From Candidatus Kaiserbacteria bacterium (GTDB taxonomy: Bacteria > Patescibacteriota > Minisyncoccia > Phycocordibacterales > UBA2100): a stretch of 20,202 bases of DNA. The translations under genes and the position numbers were made by a program. Where the stretch lies: the NCBI GenBank assembly GCA_026996985.1, contig JALWJR010000028.1, forward strand, positions 1-20,202, in the 5' to 3' direction. Under the pieces are notes generated by a model, which was given only the letters and a program-made list of their open reading frames with translations, was not told the origin of the DNA and did not search any database. Below are positions 4,137 to 19,362 of the stretch, piece by piece. Each line of letters starts with the position of its first letter. The first letter of the stretch is position 1.

Positions 4137-4160
4137 TATATCCGCCCATAGCTCAGCTGG
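4137..4160 (+). repeat. exact copy of 5 leader nt plus the first 19 nt of tRNA-Lys (tatatccgcccatagctcagctgg)
   Basis: Identical 24-mer recurs at 4230..4253, where it starts the real tRNA-Lys. Confidence 0.85.
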
Positions 4161-4229
4161 CCCAGCACCAAATTGGTGCCGGACATGTGCCGCAACAGGC
4201 TATAGGTGCGTGTAGATTTACGAATCGTT
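4161..4229 (+). repeat. 69-nt spacer with palindrome gcaccaaattggtgc and motif cggacatg; weak similarity to the Z modules
   Basis: Shares gcacca, cggacatg and ccgca with 11014..11083. Assignment to the Z family is tentative. Confidence 0.35.
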
Positions 4230-4234
4230 TATAT

Positions 4235-4307
4235 CCGCCCATAGCTCAGCTGGTAGAGCAGCGGGCTTTTAACCCGTGTGTCCCAGGTTCGAGTCCTGGT
4301 GGGCGGA
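4235..4307 (+). tRNA. tRNA-Lys (anticodon TTT)
   Basis: Hand-folded cloverleaf. Acceptor CCGCCCA/TGGGCGG, D arm GCTC..GAGC, anticodon stem GCGGG/CCCGT, loop CTTTTAA, T arm CCAGG TTCGAGT CCTGG. No encoded CCA. Confidence 0.9.
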
Positions 4308-4584
4308 CACGGAACAAAGTGGAGTGGCCGAACACAGCAGAGCAAACCAAGCCGTTATTGTAACTAACAGCTTGGCAAGTTGCTTTGCTTCTATTTTGGT
4401 GAGAAAGTTTACCCAGCCCATTTTTCACTGCCGGCTCTATTACCACGAAAGAGAAATTGCGCTCAATTACTAAACAGGTGCAACAGAGAGTATATTTAAA
4501 AGTGGTGGGGGCTGGTAGGCAACAAACAATACAATGGTTCGCACTCATTCAATTCAGTGAAGAGTGGGACAGAGTGAATTTATG

Positions 4585-10622: not shown

Positions 10623-10660
10623 TGGACAATAGCGCAATTTTGCATTATTATGAGCCCACT

Positions 10661-10732
10661 GTCCCCGTAGTTTAATGGATAAAACAGGTGGCTTCTACCC
10701 ACCCGATGGGGGTTCGAGTCCTCCCGGGGACA
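10661..10732 (+). tRNA. tRNA-Arg (anticodon TCT)
   Basis: Acceptor GTCCCCG/CGGGGAC, anticodon stem GGTGG/CCACC, loop CTTCTAC, T arm GGGGG TTCGAGT CCTCC. Confidence 0.9.
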
Positions 10733-10938
10733 CAAAACAAGAAGCGCAAAGCGAACGCTTTGCGCGACTATGTTTTGTTAAACCCGGGAGGATCTCGAAA
10801 AAAGGCGCGCGCGAAGCCCACAAAGACACGGGTGTGTCTTTGTGGAGCGTGCCGTCGGGGCAGCGGGCACTTAGCGCTTTTGCCGAGTGAAAGGAGGCAA
10901 AAAGCTTAGTGCCGGCGCCGAGTCCTCCCGGGGACACA
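10733..10938 (+). other. tRNA-3'-end-capped structured insertion, Arg copy: trailer hairpin, guide-like strand, GGATCTCGAAA core, two hairpins, exact tRNA 3'-end copy
   Basis: Trailer hairpin 10733..10777. cccgggagga (10783..10792) is complementary to tcctcccggg. Hairpins 10818..10845 and 10866..10913. The 20-mer cgagtcctcccggggacaca occurs at 10715..10734 and 10919..10938. Confidence 0.6.
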
Positions 10939-10940
10939 TA

Positions 10941-11013
10941 GAATATCAAATCCTCAAAGCAACGCTTTGGGGATTTTTGATATTCTTGGCACCGGGAGGA
11001 CCTCGAAAAGAGG
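10941..11013 (+). repeat. second trailer hairpin plus a second guide-like strand and core (accgggaggacctcgaaaagagg)
   Basis: Hairpin gaatatcaaa...tttgatattc at 10941..10985. Core at 10991..11013 repeats the layout of 10783..10808. Confidence 0.6.
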
Positions 11014-11083
11014 CGCCCCGCACCATGCACGCATGATGCGGACATGCCCGCACCATACGTACCAATTCGTATACATAATAAAA
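11014..11083 (+). repeat. Z module: palindromic hairpin ccgcaccatgcacgcatgatgcgg flanked by two gcccgcaccat-like motifs, plus a 33-nt tail
   Basis: Near-identical first part at 19317..19350. tgcccgcaccatac also occurs at 13530..13543. The tail is the exact reverse complement of 13596..13628. Confidence 0.6.
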
Positions 11084-13493: not shown

Positions 13494-13554
13494 GATGCAG
13501 ACCAACATGCATCGTGCGTGGTGTGGGCCTGCCCGCACCATACTACACTGCATC
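13494..13554 (+). repeat. Z-like palindromic element (gatgcag...ctgcatc closing stem; inner tggtgtggg/cccgcacca)
   Basis: Shares tgcccgcaccatac with 11045..11058. On the minus strand, gcccacacca copies the tRNA-Val 3' end. Confidence 0.5.
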
Positions 13555-13595: not shown

Positions 13596-13628
13596 TTTTA
13601 TTATGTATACGAATTGGTACGTATGGTG
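13596..13628 (-). repeat. 33-nt tRNA-Val trailer, exact inverted copy of 11051..11083
   Basis: The reverse complement reads caccatacgtaccaattcgtatacataataaaa, identical to 11051..11083. Confidence 0.9.
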
Positions 13629-13702
13629 TGGGCGATGTTGGGCTCGAACCAACGACCTTCCGCTTGTAAGGCGGACGCTCTAGCCAACTGAGCTAATCGC
13701 CC
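13629..13702 (-). tRNA. tRNA-Val (anticodon TAC)
   Basis: Acceptor GGGCGAT/ATCGCCC, D arm GCTC..GAGC, anticodon stem TCCGC/GCGGA, loop CTTACAA, T arm GTTGG TTCGAGC CCAAC. Confidence 0.9.
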
Positions 13703-14622: not shown

Positions 14623-15367
14623 AATAATTAAAGAAGAAAAGGATTTTTTAATTTTGAACAAACCTTCCGGTATATCGGTTCATCCGGACGGCAAAACTCA
14701 AGAATACACCCTTGCCCATTGGATAGTCGATAACTACCCTCAACTAAAAGAAGTTGGAGAGCCATGGATAACCCCGAAAGGTGAAAGAATAGAGCGCCCC
14801 GGTATTGTCCACAGACTTGATAAAGAGACCAGCGGAATCTTGGTTATTGCCAAAACATCTGAGATGTTTTTTCGCTTGAAGGAGCAGTTTCAAAACAGGC
14901 AAGTTAAAAAAACCTATAAAGCTTTTGTATACGGCACCTTTAAAGAGGATTTTTTTCAAATTGACAAACCGATAGGCAGAAGCCCGAAAGACTTCAGGCG
15001 GTTTTCGGCGCAACCGGGCGCGCGTGGTAAAAAAAGAAATGCGCAAACCTCGGTTAGAGTAATTGAGCAAATCGGCAAAGGAGCAGACGGGTTTGCTTTT
15101 GTTAATTTATACCCCAAAACCGGAAGAACACACCAGTTGAGGGTGCATCTGAAAGCGGTACATCACCCGATTGTGTGTGATAAACTGTATGCCCCCAAAA
15201 GAGAATGTTTCTTTGGTTTTGAACGTTTAGCTCTGCACGCATTTTCTTTGAAGTTTACCGATTTGGCAGGCAAGGAAGTGTATTTTGAAAGCCGACTACC
15301 TTCAGATTTTCAAAATGCGCTTAAAAATTTTAAACATAATGGACCTTTACAAGGTCAAACCTTGTAA
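14591..15367 (+). CDS. RluA-family pseudouridine synthase, no S4 domain
   Basis: FLILNKPSGISVH and HRLDKETSGILVIAKT (catalytic Asp motif), RTHQLRVH. Overlaps the end of uppS by 32 nt. Confidence 0.85.
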   Translation: MKPDKEDVDVEIIKEEKDFLILNKPSGISVHPDGKTQEYTLAHWIVDNYPQLKEVGEPWITPKGERIERPGIVHRLDKETSGILVIAKTSEMFFRLKEQFQNRQVKKTYKAFVYGTFKEDFFQIDKPIGRSPKDFRRFSAQPGARGKKRNAQTSVRVIEQIGKGADGFAFVNLYPKTGRTHQLRVHLKAVHHPIVCDKLYAPKRECFFGFERLALHAFSLKFTDLAGKEVYFESRLPSDFQNALKNFKHNGPLQGQTL

Positions 15368-15436
15368 TATTGCGAAGATTTTATCAGAGAAAAATTGTTT
15401 TGCATTTTTTAAATCTTATGCTAAAGTGTTGCCACT

Positions 15437-16067: not shown

Positions 16068-16149
16068 GCCCAGGTGGTGGAACTGGTATACACACACGGT
16101 TGAGGGCCGTGGCACTCCGTGCGTGCGGGTTCGAGTCCCGCCCTGGGCA
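16068..16149 (+). tRNA. tRNA-Leu (anticodon GAG)
   Basis: Acceptor GCCCAGG/CCTGGGC, anticodon stem CACGG/CCGTG, loop TTGAGGG, long variable arm, T arm GCGGG TTCGAGT CCCGC. Confidence 0.9.
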
Positions 16150-16343
16150 CAAGCGAAACGAAGTGGAGTGCGGTGCACAGGGAGCAGAGCAAACTGCTTT
16201 GCTCTGCGTCGGGATCTCGAAAGGCGGAGCGATGTGCGAGCAAAGCGAGCACGATGCGAGCCCGGGCAGGAGCCACTTAACGAACGAGGAGCAAAGCGAC
16301 GAAGTGAGTTTAGTGAGCTGACGCCGAGTCCCGCCCTGGGCAC
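16150..16343 (+). other. tRNA-3'-end-capped structured insertion, Leu copy (divergent)
   Basis: Trailer hairpin 16184..16207, core gggatctcgaaagg at 16211..16224, then cgcc and an exact 19-mer cgagtcccgccctgggcac at 16325..16343 (first copy 16132..16150). Confidence 0.55.
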
Positions 16344-16671
16344 TAGGTGTCGCTATATCAAGCCCTACAAAATGTAGGGCTTGATGGGAATATGGTTTAA
16401 ATATATTAAAGAGTTGAGCAGTTCAGATACAATATCAAGATATTGTTATTATTAGTAATTCACGCACGAAACCATATTCCCATTTAGCGACATCTAGTGC
16501 CAGGGCACCAATGCCCCTGCAACAGATTTTGTTGTGTAATCTAGTGTTGCAATTTGATATTAGAGTGGTCAATCTTCAAGCAAAAAAGTATAATGTTTAT
16601 ATGTAAAAACCTTAAAATTTTAAACTGAAATTTTAAGGAAACAAAATCTGTTGTCAGGGGCGCCCTGGGCA
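16341..16671 (+). other. AT-rich nested-hairpin element ending in a third partial tRNA-Leu 3'-end copy (cgccctgggca)
   Basis: Long-range pairs 16341..16355/16485..16499 (with one G-T), 16386..16397/16470..16481 and 16514..16533/16640..16660. Local hairpin 16357..16385. Partial copy at 16661..16671. Confidence 0.5.
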
Positions 16672-16686
16672 TAAAAAATTGAAGAT

Positions 16687-16947
16687 ATGTTTAGTTATGT
16701 TTATATTTTGCAATCTAAGAAAGATGGTTCCACATACACAGGAAGTACAACAGATTTGAAAAGAAGAATAAAAGAGCATAATGATGGTAAAGTAAAATCT
16801 ACGAGATCAAAACGTCCTTGGAAGTTAGTGTATTATGAAGCTTATCTTTTAGAAGATACTGCCAGAAAACGTGAAAAATCAATAAAAACACATGGTAATA
16901 TAAAGAGGCAATTATTTGATAGAATCTTTAAAAATTTATCTTCATAA
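16687..16947 (+). CDS. small stand-alone GIY-YIG nuclease-domain protein (YhbQ/UPF0213-like)
   Basis: YVYILQS...YTGSTTDLKRRIKEHN...WKLVYYE...AR.RE..IK matches the GIY-YIG core. Confidence 0.8.
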   Translation: MFSYVYILQSKKDGSTYTGSTTDLKRRIKEHNDGKVKSTRSKRPWKLVYYEAYLLEDTARKREKSIKTHGNIKRQLFDRIFKNLSS

Positions 16948-18421: not shown

Positions 18422-18444
18422 CCTACCGGTCGCATCGGATGGTC

Positions 18445-18547
18445 GCCCCCCACCACTTTTGTGCTTTAAACCTGTGGCGGTAAATAGTAAAGTGTTGACA
18501 AGCCAAATTGCAAATTAATGGTTTACGGTACAAAAGTGGTGGGGGGA
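18445..18547 (+). repeat. 103-nt extended hairpin at the P3 position (17-bp base ccccccaccacttttgt/acaaaagtggtgggggg)
   Basis: Identical to 18563..18666 except for one extra C in the second copy. Confidence 0.9.
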
Positions 18548-18562
18548 GGAAAGTCCGGACAC

Positions 18563-18666
18563 GCCCCCCCACCACTTTTGTGCTTTAAACCTGTGGCGGT
18601 AAATAGTAAAGTGTTGACAAGCCAAATTGCAAATTAATGGTTTACGGTACAAAAGTGGTGGGGGGA
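18563..18666 (+). repeat. second copy of the 103/104-nt hairpin, inserted just after the P4 5' strand
   Basis: Direct comparison with 18445..18547. Confidence 0.9.
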
Positions 18667-18958
18667 GAAAGGTAGCGGGTAACACCCGTCCGGGGCAACC
18701 CGAGAGGTGCGAACAGAGACGCTGAAAGTGGAAACACTTTCAGGGCCCTTTTGGGGTTAGCTCTTAGGGAAACCTAAGAGGTGAAACGGCTAAATCCTTA
18801 CCTGCGTGCAAGGCCGTGCCGAGCCCATACATTTAGTATAAGCTCGGAGAGCCGCAAGAGGCGACTGGTAACAGTCGTCCCAGATAAATGACCATCGCTG
18901 AGTCTTTTGGCGCAAAGATTCGGTACAGAATCCGGCTTATAGATGCGATCTGCCAGAT

Positions 18959-19032
18959 GGCGGCTGTAGCTCAGTTGGTAGAGCCCTCGGTTGTGGTCCG
19001 AGTGGTCGTGGGTTCGAGTCCCACCAGTCGCC
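18959..19032 (+). tRNA. tRNA-His (anticodon GTG) with encoded G-1
   Basis: G-1 opposite C73. Acceptor GCGGCTG/CAGTCGC, anticodon stem CTCGG/CCGAG, loop TTGTGGT, T arm GTGGG TTCGAGT CCCAC. Confidence 0.9.
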
Positions 19033-19108
19033 CAGCAATTGTTAAGCCAAAACACAAGCGTGTTTTGGTTTTTACAATTGCCGGCGAATGTGGGATCTCG
19101 AAAAGAGG
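19015..19108 (+). repeat. 94-bp direct repeat, copy 1: tRNA-His T-loop to 3' end, trailer hairpin, guide-like strand and core
   Basis: Exact 94-mer recurs at 19223..19316 (period 208). Confidence 0.95.
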
Positions 19109-19222
19109 CGCGCGCGAAGCCCGCAAAGACACAGGTGTGTCTTTGCGGAGCGCGCCGTCCGGGCAGGGGGTACTTAGTGCTTTTGCCGAGTTTAACGAGG
19201 CAAAACACTTAGTACCGGTCGC
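19109..19222 (+). other. conserved two-hairpin core of the tRNA-linked element, His copy
   Basis: Hairpins 19121..19148 and 19169..19216. By-eye alignment to 10809..10918 is close to nine-tenths identical, with compensatory changes. Confidence 0.6.
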
Positions 19223-19316
19223 CGAGTCCCACCAGTCGCCCAGCAATTGTTAAGCCAAAACACAAGCGTGTTTTGGTTTTTACAATTGCCGGCGAATGTG
19301 GGATCTCGAAAAGAGG
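19223..19316 (+). repeat. 94-bp direct repeat, copy 2
   Basis: Identical to 19015..19108. Confidence 0.95.
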
Positions 19317-19362
19317 TGCCCCACACCATGCACGCATGATGCGGGCAGGCCCGCGTAGTCGG
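19317..19362 (+). repeat. Z module, His copy (tgccccacaccatgcacgcatgatgcgggcaggcccgc...)
   Basis: Close match to 11014..11050. Confidence 0.6.

Follow-up and report, generated by a model that had tools for sequence, protein, structure and literature searches.

We showed that the DNA directly 3' of the tRNA-Arg(TCT) gene in the window (the whole stretch of 20,202 nucleotides analysed here) holds one member of a family of short structured units which reside behind tRNA genes of Patescibacteria. The unit is about 200 nt long and protein-free. Its four parts are a terminator-like hairpin (hp); an arm antisense to the host tRNA (anti), complementary to its positions 54 to about 70; a conserved core with a three-way junction; and a sense arm (S) reaching from C56 to the tRNA 3' end. 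At least 55 copies were found in Patescibacteria contigs using a covariance model. The family was previously undescribed and Rfam is without it. With a little less than even confidence, we read it as a long-lived non-autonomous element resident 3' of Patescibacteria tRNA genes, either a genetic parasite or a domesticated one. The features of the window on which the analysis rests are as follows.

10623..10651, + strand, promoter-like site of tRNA-Arg (TGGACA-17-TATTAT), the sole candidate promoter upstream of the element
10661..10733, + strand, intact tRNA-Arg(TCT), the host gene (ARAGORN; Rfam tRNA model, 65.7 bits)
10715..10734, + strand, S1, C56 to the 3' end of tRNA-Arg plus one base, repeat copy 1 (20 nt)
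10734..10776, + strand, hp1, terminator-like hairpin directly 3' of tRNA-Arg (folding)
10783..10799, + strand, anti1 (CCCGGGAGGATCTCGAA), complementary to tRNA positions 54 to ~69 except for one bulged base (inverted repeats, folds)
10800..10918, + strand, three-way-junction core with junction AAAAGG, P2, P3 and terminal CGC (sequence identity, covariation)
10804-10856, + strand, core hairpin P2
about 10859-10918, + strand, core hairpin P3, with its basal pair at 10919
10919..10938, + strand, S2, exact copy 2 of the tRNA T-loop-to-3'-end segment (direct repeat)
10939..10986, + strand, hp2, second hairpin, with a conserved loop common with hp1 and different stems
10987..11007, + strand, anti2 (TGGCACCGGGAGGACCTCGAA), second antisense arm, extending nearly to the discriminator base (inverted repeats, fold)
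11008..11045, + strand, Z module, occupying the place of a second core (repeat analysis)
11046..11083, + strand, 37/38 copy of the tRNA-Val 3' end and trailer hairpin
13628-13702, - strand, tRNA-Val gene, whose 3' end and trailer are matched by 11046..11083, 2.5 kb away
16132..16346, + strand, sister element behind tRNA-Leu(GAG) (repeats; covariance model, 111 bits)
19015..19354, + strand, sister element behind tRNA-His (repeats; covariance model, 77 bits)

The architecture at tRNA-Arg was as the earlier note had described it, all the features it named being found where it placed them. The 20-nt segment CGAGTCCTCCCGGGGACACA occurs exactly at 10715-10734, inside the tRNA, and at 10919-10938, so that S1 and S2 lie 204 nt apart; by our own arithmetic, the chance expectation for such a 20-nt pair in 20 kb is ~2e-4. 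The hairpin given as 45 nt is present after the tRNA (10734-10776), and CCCGGGAGGA (10783-10792) is the reverse complement of TCCTCCCGGG in both repeat copies. The GGATCTCGAAAAAAGG motif occurs 5 times in the window against 0.23 expected, and the two GC-rich hairpins were located at 10804-10856 and 10859-10919. The proposed restart of the pattern after copy 2 was recovered as a direct repeat (92%), and the region after tRNA-Arg amounts to about one and a half tandem units. The palindromic Z module at its end is a hairpin in which a CCCGCACCA-type tRNA 3' end occurs once in sense and once in antisense, and it recurs at 19320-19354, while its description as the palindromic end of the pattern was incomplete, the following 11046-11083 being a 37/38 match to the tRNA-Val 3' end and trailer. 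As had been claimed, the unit encodes no protein: the ORFs overlapping the Arg region span the tRNA and the hairpins, and no protein-sized ORF is attributable to the unit itself. No promoter-like site was found between tRNA-Arg and the antisense arm.

The view of a single insertion was not upheld, since the family to which the unit belongs has many copies, behind tRNAs of at least 16 specificities, 3 of which occur in the window. The Arg core (10800..10918) is 88% identical to 19093-19218 in the tRNA-His element, and the covariance model matches the Arg element at 10776-10940 with 82 bits. In the tRNA-Leu element S2 lies at 16325-16343 and the antisense arm is interrupted by a GCAAACUGCUUUGC hairpin at the acceptor/T-stem boundary. 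The tRNA-His core is flanked by a 97-nt repeat (19015-19111 and 19223-19319; 99% identity) followed by a Z module. The duplicated length in the window is 20 nt at Arg, 19 nt at Leu and 97 nt at His, and varies across the family (11-23 nt, at least 40 nt, 97 nt).

The survey of the family began with a genome-wide pattern, GGATCTCGAAA...CGCCGARTCC, which returned 59 loci, of which 58 were chance matches in GC-rich genomes and one (L037) was real. The core pattern matched 35 metagenome loci and one Patescibacteria MAG. The covariance model R1 gave 47 matches in the core-pattern loci and 7 further ones in orthologous loci. Neither 58 unrelated loci totalling 400 kb nor viral contigs gave any match with R1, and no family member turned up in two scans of viral contigs. 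A same-strand tRNA lies upstream of each full-scoring match having upstream sequence, with the sole exception of locus L089, at a distance of typically 43-50 nt (full range 2-205 nt). The host tRNAs cover 16 amino-acid specificities, and on the contigs examined the element accompanies between about one third and one half of the tRNA genes. In Rfam 15, the core had no match at the gathering threshold or at E<=1-10 in the window and 10 other loci; at relaxed thresholds only spurious microRNA-like hairpin matches appeared, and the genuine tRNAs were the sole true matches. No recombinase, transposase or reverse transcriptase was found in or consistently beside the element in the family loci, and clustering of the neighbouring ORFs in these loci yielded no consistent protein partner. 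Small GIY-YIG genes near some of the tRNAs were the only protein family recurring beside elements. No description of the element was found in the literature.

The fold is supported by strong covariation. In the family alignment 86% of the cells are paired, compared with 29-41% in slid controls; the covariation score of 0.47 exceeds the value of about 0.1 in the controls, and substitutions on both sides occur in 26/37 pairs, with covariation across the family also at the foot of the P1 helix. The junction nucleotides are highly conserved, while the sequence of P1 is variable yet still paired; in locus L103 the junction is remodelled. The counts of G-U against A-C are 27:14 in P2/P3 and 29:29 in P1, an asymmetry which points only weakly to the strand or nucleic acid under selection. 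Two mutually exclusive folds with strong z-scores are predicted. In fold A, the tRNA cloverleaf would be followed by a three-way junction closed by anti:S2 (helix P1), while in fold B two long hairpins, S1-hp-anti1 and S2-hp2-anti2, would form; anti1 could accordingly pair either with S1 to give the long hairpin LH1 or with S2 to give P1. The S-hp-anti block forms an imperfect palindrome in which the feet are conserved (CGARTCC / GGAYTCG), the centre varies and some bases are bulged.

The earlier note had further proposed that the insertion and the second copy close into an acceptor/T-stem-like helix. The insertion with S2 indeed copies the acceptor/T-stem duplex, and the P1 closing helix is the minimum-free-energy fold of 10734-10940 (-113 kcal/mol, z = -8.65), but the structure is not strictly tRNA-like: the T-loop is absent, the antisense arm runs uninterrupted across positions 54-60 of the T-loop, and copies frequently lack the last 3-4 acceptor pairs. 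In some members (the Leu element of the window, L068, L088 and L069) the antisense arm reproduces the entire acceptor 5' strand, with a hairpin branching at the acceptor/T-stem boundary, and S2 commonly has its own terminator-like hairpin after it, like a tRNA gene. Most of the acceptor strand is gone from the second copy in the orthologous lineages L103 and L108, where the element is nevertheless still present, and because these elements persist, universal processing by RNase P, RNase Z and CCA addition as a tRNA-like RNA is doubtful. Where S2 and the tRNA diverge, the antisense arm follows the tRNA more closely than S2 does.

Conservation outside the source genome, the lack of which had been named as grounds for rejecting the element, is extensive. 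The tRNA-Arg(TCT) module is present in 6/6 syntenic lineages examined, with Na/Ca-exchanger proteins which are 56-60% identical. The T-loop variants CGAGT, CGACT, CGATT and CAACT are reproduced in both anti and S2, hp1 has homologues in the corresponding hairpins of L103 and L108, where stem substitutions preserve the pairing, and in L110 the tRNA-Arg and its element are inverted together as a single unit. Both occupied and empty sites, which the earlier note had suggested looking for in related genomes, were found. The syntenic relative L113 has the same seven tRNAs, with the tRNA-His and tRNA-Leu sites empty, without hp and anti, a difference which may reflect either gain or loss. The tRNA-Val site is occupied in L112 only. 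The contigs of the close relatives L100-L102 (82-93% identity) stop just upstream of the neighbouring gene and are hence uninformative.

Several observations on the sequences point to mobility, namely tandem arrays, truncated and chimeric copies and a near-identical module in diverged genomes. The cores of L073 and L091 are 96% identical over 123 nt, while their arms are entirely different and their tRNAs are different. Tandem arrays behind one tRNA combine different core subtypes (L069, L112), and truncated copies exist. Chimeric copies with the S arm of another tRNA were found in the window (tRNA-Val, 37/38), L081, L095, L099 and L073. Between S2-hp2-anti2 of the window and S1-hp1-anti1 of L110/L111 identity reaches 98.8%, compared with 90.5% for the tRNA and about 71% for the neighbouring gene. 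The empty His and Leu sites of L113 and the breaks of independent assemblies within the element likewise fit mobility or duplication.

On the reading as a resident element, a tRNA gene would acquire a unit-length copy (S-hp-anti-core) through recombination in the common S segment, a step which would duplicate whatever gene and unit have in common and leave the tRNA intact. The arms would later be kept matched, S1 and S2 presumably by gene conversion between direct repeats and S1 and anti by template switching between inverted repeats, with the tRNA, being under selection, as the master copy for the arms. The element would be co-transcribed from the tRNA promoter, its RNA or single-stranded DNA could take the two folds, and the enzyme moving it would act in trans. 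Against mobility, no recombinase, transposase or reverse transcriptase consistently accompanies the element and no circular or excised form was observed. Full occupancy of tRNA-Arg(TCT) over deep divergence is the expectation for a host-beneficial cis-acting RNA, and constant spacing and co-variation of the arms with the tRNA would likewise be expected of such an RNA. It is possible, though rather less likely than not, that the family represents a novel type of mobile RNA/DNA element, programmable and protein-free, or an equally novel 3' switch gating tRNA maturation. As a programmable element, its arms would be sense and antisense to the tRNA 3' end and rewritten from the target on each new tRNA type, and its transposition or replication would proceed through a dumbbell-shaped single strand of unit length (S-hp-anti-core, about 200 nt). 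As a 3' switch, the tRNA's own 5' half would compete with the cis-encoded antisense arm.

The main rival to a mobile element is a cis-acting RNA switch controlling the tRNA, which we consider rather unlikely. The junction would be a putative sensor of a ligand or protein, closed by P1 (anti:S2). When P1 is formed, the antisense arm would be sequestered and the upstream tRNA would fold normally; when P1 is open, the antisense arm, nucleated by hp, would invade the T-arm and the acceptor 3' strand, S1-hp-anti would become one continuous hairpin and the precursor would be misfolded or degraded. The arms would be tRNA-specific because S2 is a decoy which must equal S1. Such a switch agrees with an element always on the same strand directly 3' of the tRNA at constant spacing, with the tRNA promoter as the only promoter-like site, with the two exclusive predicted folds and their strong z-scores, with a conserved junction beside a P1 which varies but keeps pairing, with the occupancy of 6/6 orthologous tRNA-Arg(TCT) loci by elements whose arms co-vary with the tRNA, and with an antisense arm which follows the tRNA where S2 and S1 differ. 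However, tandem, truncated and chimeric copies with the 3' end of another tRNA are hard to account for by a switch, as are near-identical modules in diverged genomes and the presence/absence differences at the His, Leu and Val loci of syntenic relatives. Moreover, the junction of L103 is remodelled, a terminator-like hp would halt most transcripts ahead of the switch, and bacterial riboswitches are not known to regulate a tRNA from the 3' side.

The idea of the earlier note, a discrete RNA gene of ~150-200 nt whose ends form an acceptor/T-stem minihelix, is quite unlikely. Its RNA would be released from the tRNA co-transcript by RNase Z and then trimmed and given CCA like a tRNA, and might be nick-sealed to a circle with the 5' and 3' ends abutting in the stacked helix. 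The P1-closed fold as the minimum of the trailer-to-S2 RNA, the full acceptor 5' strand and boundary branch in some antisense arms and the terminator-like hairpin common after S2 are in line with this, but the T-loop is absent with the helix continuous through positions 56-60, the Arg copy lacks the terminal 3-4 acceptor pairs, the elements of L103 and L108 persist after loss of the S2 acceptor strand, S2 is swapped for the end of another tRNA in several copies, and the element has no match to tRNA, tmRNA or Y-RNA-like Rfam models. A scar of an integrase-mediated island or prophage, with attL and attR around a nearly fully deleted element, is very improbable and, given the family data, in effect already refuted. 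Tyrosine integrases targeting tRNA genes classically leave a direct repeat of the 3' part of the tRNA which begins in the T-loop, and such a repeat was found here, but the same 130-nt covarying core lies between the repeats at >50 loci and 16 tRNA types, the tRNA end is invariably present in antisense too, and neither an integrase remnant nor a match in viral contigs was found. That the element is an assembly artefact or a chance repeat has a negligible probability. Independent short-read assemblies do break within the element, but a chimeric assembly, feared in the earlier note, was not borne out: the ENA and Logan assemblies match the locus at 100% identity, although this support (L002, L003, L004) consists of overlapping pieces and no single independent contig spans both copies. 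The same architecture stands within single contigs of other lineages (L103, L108, L110, L112), and the repeat statistics contradict chance.

Patescibacteria have genomes of ~1 Mb with little spare DNA. If the element is mobile, it would be a gene-less parasite which targets tRNA genes without disrupting them, and its target-matched arms would imply a retargeting mechanism which might be of interest for work on programmable recombination. A regulatory role would make it the first case of an RNA switch that acts on a tRNA from the 3' side. In addition, a structured RNA family absent from Rfam is added, and the presence of the element explains why assemblies break at Patescibacteria tRNA loci. 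The occupied and empty orthologous sites together with arms co-varying with the tRNA make a clean comparative system in which the question is directly testable.

Compared with known systems, islands and prophages with attL/attR of tyrosine integrases share with the element an insert flanked by a repeat of the tRNA 3' segment from the T-loop, an intact tRNA and a duplicated length equal to what element and target have in common; most family members, as well as the Leu and His elements of the window, have the repeat too. In contrast to islands, the element is about 200 nt without integrase or other gene, always has the antisense tRNA copy, combines one core with at least 16 tRNA types and is retained at tRNA-Arg(TCT) over deep divergence. 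REP/BIME, Correia, RUP, ERIC and other MITEs are likewise short, multi-copy, non-coding, hairpin-rich and intergenic, with assembly breaks, subfamilies, degenerate copies and presumed mobilisation in trans, whereas the inverted arms of the element are the 3' end of the neighbouring tRNA and co-vary with it, its position is strictly at tRNA 3' flanks and its central three-way junction is conserved. A MITE or IS-derived miniature element was rejected, as the terminal inverted repeats are not element-specific, the arms differ fully between 96%-identical cores and there is no target-site duplication of fixed length. By the criteria of IS200/IS605, long hairpins do flank the core, but the target is duplicated; no TnpA or TnpB was seen by clustering in 220 kb of family loci. 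With integron attC and CTX phage attP the element shares a palindrome, S-hp-anti, which folds to a duplex copy of the target site, while its stems are tRNA-specific and no association with IntI or Xer was seen; an integron attC was rejected by the feet (CGARTCC / GGAYTCGAA, not R''/R' RYYYAAC / GTTRRRY) and by the lack of an adjacent integrase.

Riboswitches and attenuators also have a multi-way junction closed by a P1 whose strands have alternative partners (here, in the predicted folds, S1 for anti1 and anti2 for S2), but the element lies 3' of a non-coding RNA, not 5' of an mRNA, and has tandem and truncated copies. MHV68 TMERs and MALAT1 mascRNA are structured RNAs directly behind a tRNA or tRNA-like unit as well, where RNase P/Z could set the ends, but they are eukaryotic or viral and lack sense and antisense copies of their own tRNA 3' end. 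Tried and rejected were tRNA-like structures (tRNA, tmRNA domain, YrlA), as anti pairs through T-loop positions 56-60 and no T-loop forms; a target-site duplication of the T-loop, as for non-palindromic T-loops (TTCAAGT) the left arm is the reverse complement and not the sense sequence; a retroviral-type primer-binding site, as the antisense arm usually stops short of the tRNA 3' terminus; and a DGR template/variable repeat, as there are no adenine-specific differences and no reverse transcriptase. A hammerhead was rejected by junction mismatch on inspection, no ribozyme family was matched in Rfam, and the junction is presumably also unlike the cores of the twister and hairpin ribozymes. An archaeal-type BHB intron found no support either. 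TIGR or CRISPR-like guide arrays were rejected as well, since TIGR units are 36 nt with 9-nt spacers (PMC12045711) and those of the element about 200 nt with no associated nuclease operon.

The element is not itself a group I intron, having no Intron_gpI match at E<=10, no terminal G (it ends in CGC) and no recognisable P1-P10 or P7. It differs from these introns in lying outside the mature tRNA and not in the anticodon loop, in duplicating exon sequence and in a tRNA which needs no splicing to function. Nevertheless, the group I introns of bacterial tRNA genes, such as that of tRNA-Leu(UAA) in cyanobacteria, are the nearest analogy for an ancient tRNA-gene resident: both are ~200-nt protein-free structured RNAs in or at tRNA genes, and both combine old vertical inheritance with sporadic gain, loss and transfer.

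Behind tRNA-Arg(TCT), the window carries the following parts.

10661-10733: tRNA-Arg(TCT)
10715-10734: first copy of the 20-mer CGAGTCCTCCCGGGGACACA, spanning tRNA C56 to one base beyond the 3' end
10734-10776: hp1, a 43-nt hairpin
10783-10799: antisense arm CCCGGGAGGATCTCGAA, which has one bulged base and complements the T-loop, the T-stem 3' strand and part of the acceptor 3' strand
between this arm and P2: an A-rich joiner
10804-10856: P2, a GC-rich hairpin
10859-10919: P3, a GC-rich hairpin
between P3 and the second 20-mer copy: CGC
10919-10938: second copy of the 20-mer
3' of the second copy: hp2, a second hairpin
10987-11007: second antisense arm
3' of the second antisense arm: Z module, a hairpin of sense and antisense tRNA ends replacing a second core

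All of the parts that the earlier note had named between and after the 20-mer copies were thus found in the sequence. At the end of the second unit, the place of an Arg copy is taken by a copy (37/38) of the 3' end of tRNA-Val together with its trailer hairpin. The locus sequence was exact in independent ENA and Logan assemblies, which break within the locus. RNA 10734-10940 was predicted to fold as hp1 plus a three-way junction (−113 kcal/mol, z = −8.65), in which the closing helix P1 is formed by the antisense arm and the second 20-mer copy. For the full 10661-11083, another fold was predicted to be favoured (z = −13), with two long hairpins, each of a sense copy, its hairpin and its antisense arm, formed at the cost of the cloverleaf.

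The same architecture was found 3' of two further tRNA genes in the window. At tRNA-His, the core shares 88% identity with that of the Arg locus and lies between two copies of a 97-nt repeat (19015-19111 and 19223-19319); the Z module that follows is 91% identical to its Arg counterpart. At tRNA-Leu(GAG), the copy of the tRNA 3' end lies at 16325-16343. At each of the three loci both the sense and the antisense arms match the local tRNA. A scan of a genome collection gave one true relative, behind tRNA-Gln in a Patescibacteria MAG, and all 35 loci from a metagenome scan with the core pattern were genuine. The alignment of 33 units gave a consensus of P2 and P3. With P1 included, 86% of cells were paired versus 29–41% in slid controls, the covariation score was 0.47 versus about 0.1, and both-sided changes occurred in 26 of the 37 pairs. 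The covariance model built for the element, R1, matched 47 copies in family loci and 7 further copies in orthologous loci; it had no match in 58 unrelated loci totalling 400 kb, and no family member was found in the viral contigs searched. The names borne by homologous proteins, together with MAG titles, put the source organism in the Patescibacteria/Parcubacteria.

The position of the element follows strict rules. A same-strand tRNA precedes each R1 match that has sufficient sequence in front of it; the exceptions are one locus (L089) and two partial matches that are weak (E = 7e-8 and 0.002). The host tRNAs cover 16 amino-acid specificities, the distance is usually 43–50 nt and is filled by a terminator-like hairpin of constant size, and the sole promoter-like site is that of the tRNA. 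Complementarity of the antisense arm to the tRNA starts at position 54; L088, whose unusual T-loop has TG at 54-55, has CA at the corresponding place in the arm. The sense arm begins at C56, immediately 3' of the invariant CGC. In several members (window Leu, L068, L088, L069), the whole acceptor 5' strand is repeated in the antisense arm, and a conserved GCAAACUGCUUUGC hairpin splits this arm precisely where acceptor and T-stem meet. Although hypervariable in both sequence and length, P2 is a hairpin in all members; P3 contains an invariant ACUUA/UUAGU segment with a U-U mismatch and, in most members, a bulged A alongside. G-U outnumber A-C pairs 27:14 in P2/P3, with no such excess in P1.

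The GCAAACUGCUUUGC hairpin is itself a small conserved module with GCAAACUGCUUUGC central and a variable outer stem, which recurs at window 16184-16207 and in L068, L088 and L069; a disrupted copy lies near window 4335-4390.

Persistence and constraint at tRNA-Arg(TCT) were followed through four homologues of the adjoining Na/Ca-exchanger gene (56–60% protein identity), which were traced to contigs. In all of them (L103; L108/L109/L113; L110/L111; L112), tRNA-Arg(TCT) and an R1-positive element adjoin the exchanger gene, and in L110 this tRNA–element pair has been inverted as one unit. The T-loop takes four forms in these orthologues (CGAGT, CGACT, CGATT, CAACT), each with corresponding changes in the antisense-arm foot and in the sense copy; differences in the acceptor (GGGGAC versus GAGAGC) are likewise mirrored. 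The window hp1 is homologous to its counterparts in L103 and L108, the stems differing in ways that preserve pairing, and the P3 base of L103 has covaried from GGC:GCC to GCTC:GAGC. In L103 and L108 most of the acceptor strand is gone from the sense copy, but the antisense arms still fit the tRNA. More broadly, where the second sense copy departs from the tRNA (L073, L081, L095, L096, L099), it is the antisense arm that tracks the tRNA.

Further observations point to movement, duplication and recombination of the element, and occupancy of other sites differs between relatives. A 21-kb region syntenic with the window, L113, shares all seven tRNAs and their order with it, and tRNA-Arg(TCT) is the sole occupied site of L113; at its tRNA-His and tRNA-Leu(GAG) the next gene follows directly 3', without hairpin or antisense arm. 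Of the tRNA-Val sites, that of L112 has an element, that of the window has no more than sense/antisense remnants, and those of L103 and L113 have neither. Tandem arrays with differing core subtypes lie behind single tRNAs in L069 and L112, and truncated cores are also present in the family. The cores of L073 and L091 are 96% identical across 123 nt and the identity stops exactly at the T-loop feet, whereas the arms are wholly different and belong to different tRNAs. The block from the second sense copy to the second antisense arm in the window (10919-11000) is 98.8% identical to the first such block of L110/L111, while the tRNAs are 90.5% and the adjacent genes about 71% identical, which indicates recent exchange. 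The duplicated length varies (11–23 nt, at least 40 nt, 97 nt), as expected if a unit-length copy recombined with a partly homologous resident locus.

Several features accompany these sites. Within its 20 kb, the window has seven tRNA genes scattered among housekeeping genes. L113, whose proteins are about 59% identical, shares the order of genes and tRNAs, and the intergenic size difference between the two consists mostly of these non-coding elements. Downstream of tRNA-Val (13628-13702, minus strand), antisense and sense copies of its 3' end lie on its strand at 13518-13543, parted by AGG only; this coreless arm pair is a relative of the Z modules (11017-11051 and 19320-19354). The 5' end of tRNA-Lys(TTT) with upstream TATAT is duplicated 93 nt upstream of the gene (4137-4167 and 4230-4260, 31 nt, 90% identical), the copies flanking a GC-rich stretch of ~65 nt; this is possibly the equivalent, on the 5' side, of the duplicated 3' ends. 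A 46-nt perfect palindrome, TAGGCCATATTTTGCGACTCACTCGAGTGAGTCGCAAAATATGGCT, is common to L073 and L091, contigs of one metagenome, about 45 nt near the start of the 330-nt upstream flank in both, and represents a further family of miniature palindromic repeats in these organisms. Directly upstream of tRNA-His lies a class A RNase P RNA gene (18427-18955), scoring 90.2 bits against an Rfam gathering score of 100 because of two 109-nt palindromic inserts, 98% identical (18446-18554 and 18565-18673), one expanding P3 and the other 3' of the GAGGAAAGUCCGG segment; in the L113 orthologue (about 15060-15430) the inserts are absent and P3 is short.

The region 3' of the tRNA-Leu element (16347-16671) forms two nested long hairpins of about 120–150 nt each, with an antisense fragment GTGCCAGGG between them and a third, partial tRNA-Leu 3'-end copy CGCCCTGGGCA at 16661-16671, immediately before the start codon of a stand-alone GIY-YIG nuclease gene (16687-16947, plus strand, 86 aa, Pfam E = 4e-18). 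Family loci totalling 221 kb contain six homologues (among them L073, L079, L081/L090 and L092), of which four stop 0–20 nt before a tRNA gene on the same strand (Phe, Met, Val, Leu). The GIY-YIG enzyme SegB of T4 makes 2-nt 3' overhangs (PMC2330249); as speculation, the 2-nt offset of the arms (antisense from 54, sense from 56) would fit such ends.

In summary, we showed a structured family with strict tRNA linkage, arm/tRNA co-variation, occupied and empty orthologous sites, and chimeras. To combine these facts, we tentatively favour the view that the element is a non-autonomous resident of tRNA genes. It would enter by recombination within the shared 3'-end segment, leaving the tRNA intact, and could persist for very long; the selected tRNA would serve as the master copy to which gene conversion and inverted-repeat template switching keep the arms matched. 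The conserved junction may be a requirement of a putative propagation machinery, or of an RNA or ssDNA intermediate. The main rival, a cis-acting RNA switch in which P1 would sequester an antisense arm that would otherwise invade the tRNA 3' half, is considered less likely. It elegantly explains why the arms match the tRNA, why the geometry is constant and why the element is fixed at tRNA-Arg(TCT), but fits poorly to arrays, truncations, chimeras and horizontal exchange. The tRNA-like RNA gene proposed in the earlier note is improbable, because the T-loop is absent and some lineages have a second sense copy without acceptor strand. The data effectively exclude both a classical integrase scar and an artefact of assembly.

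Compared with known systems, the element matched no Rfam 15 family even at E ≤ 10, and no description of it was found in the literature, neither comparison being exhaustive. Since its likeness to known families is superficial and none of their defining tests was passed beyond that, we class this tRNA-linked element as new in kind, relative to the literature and Rfam compared.
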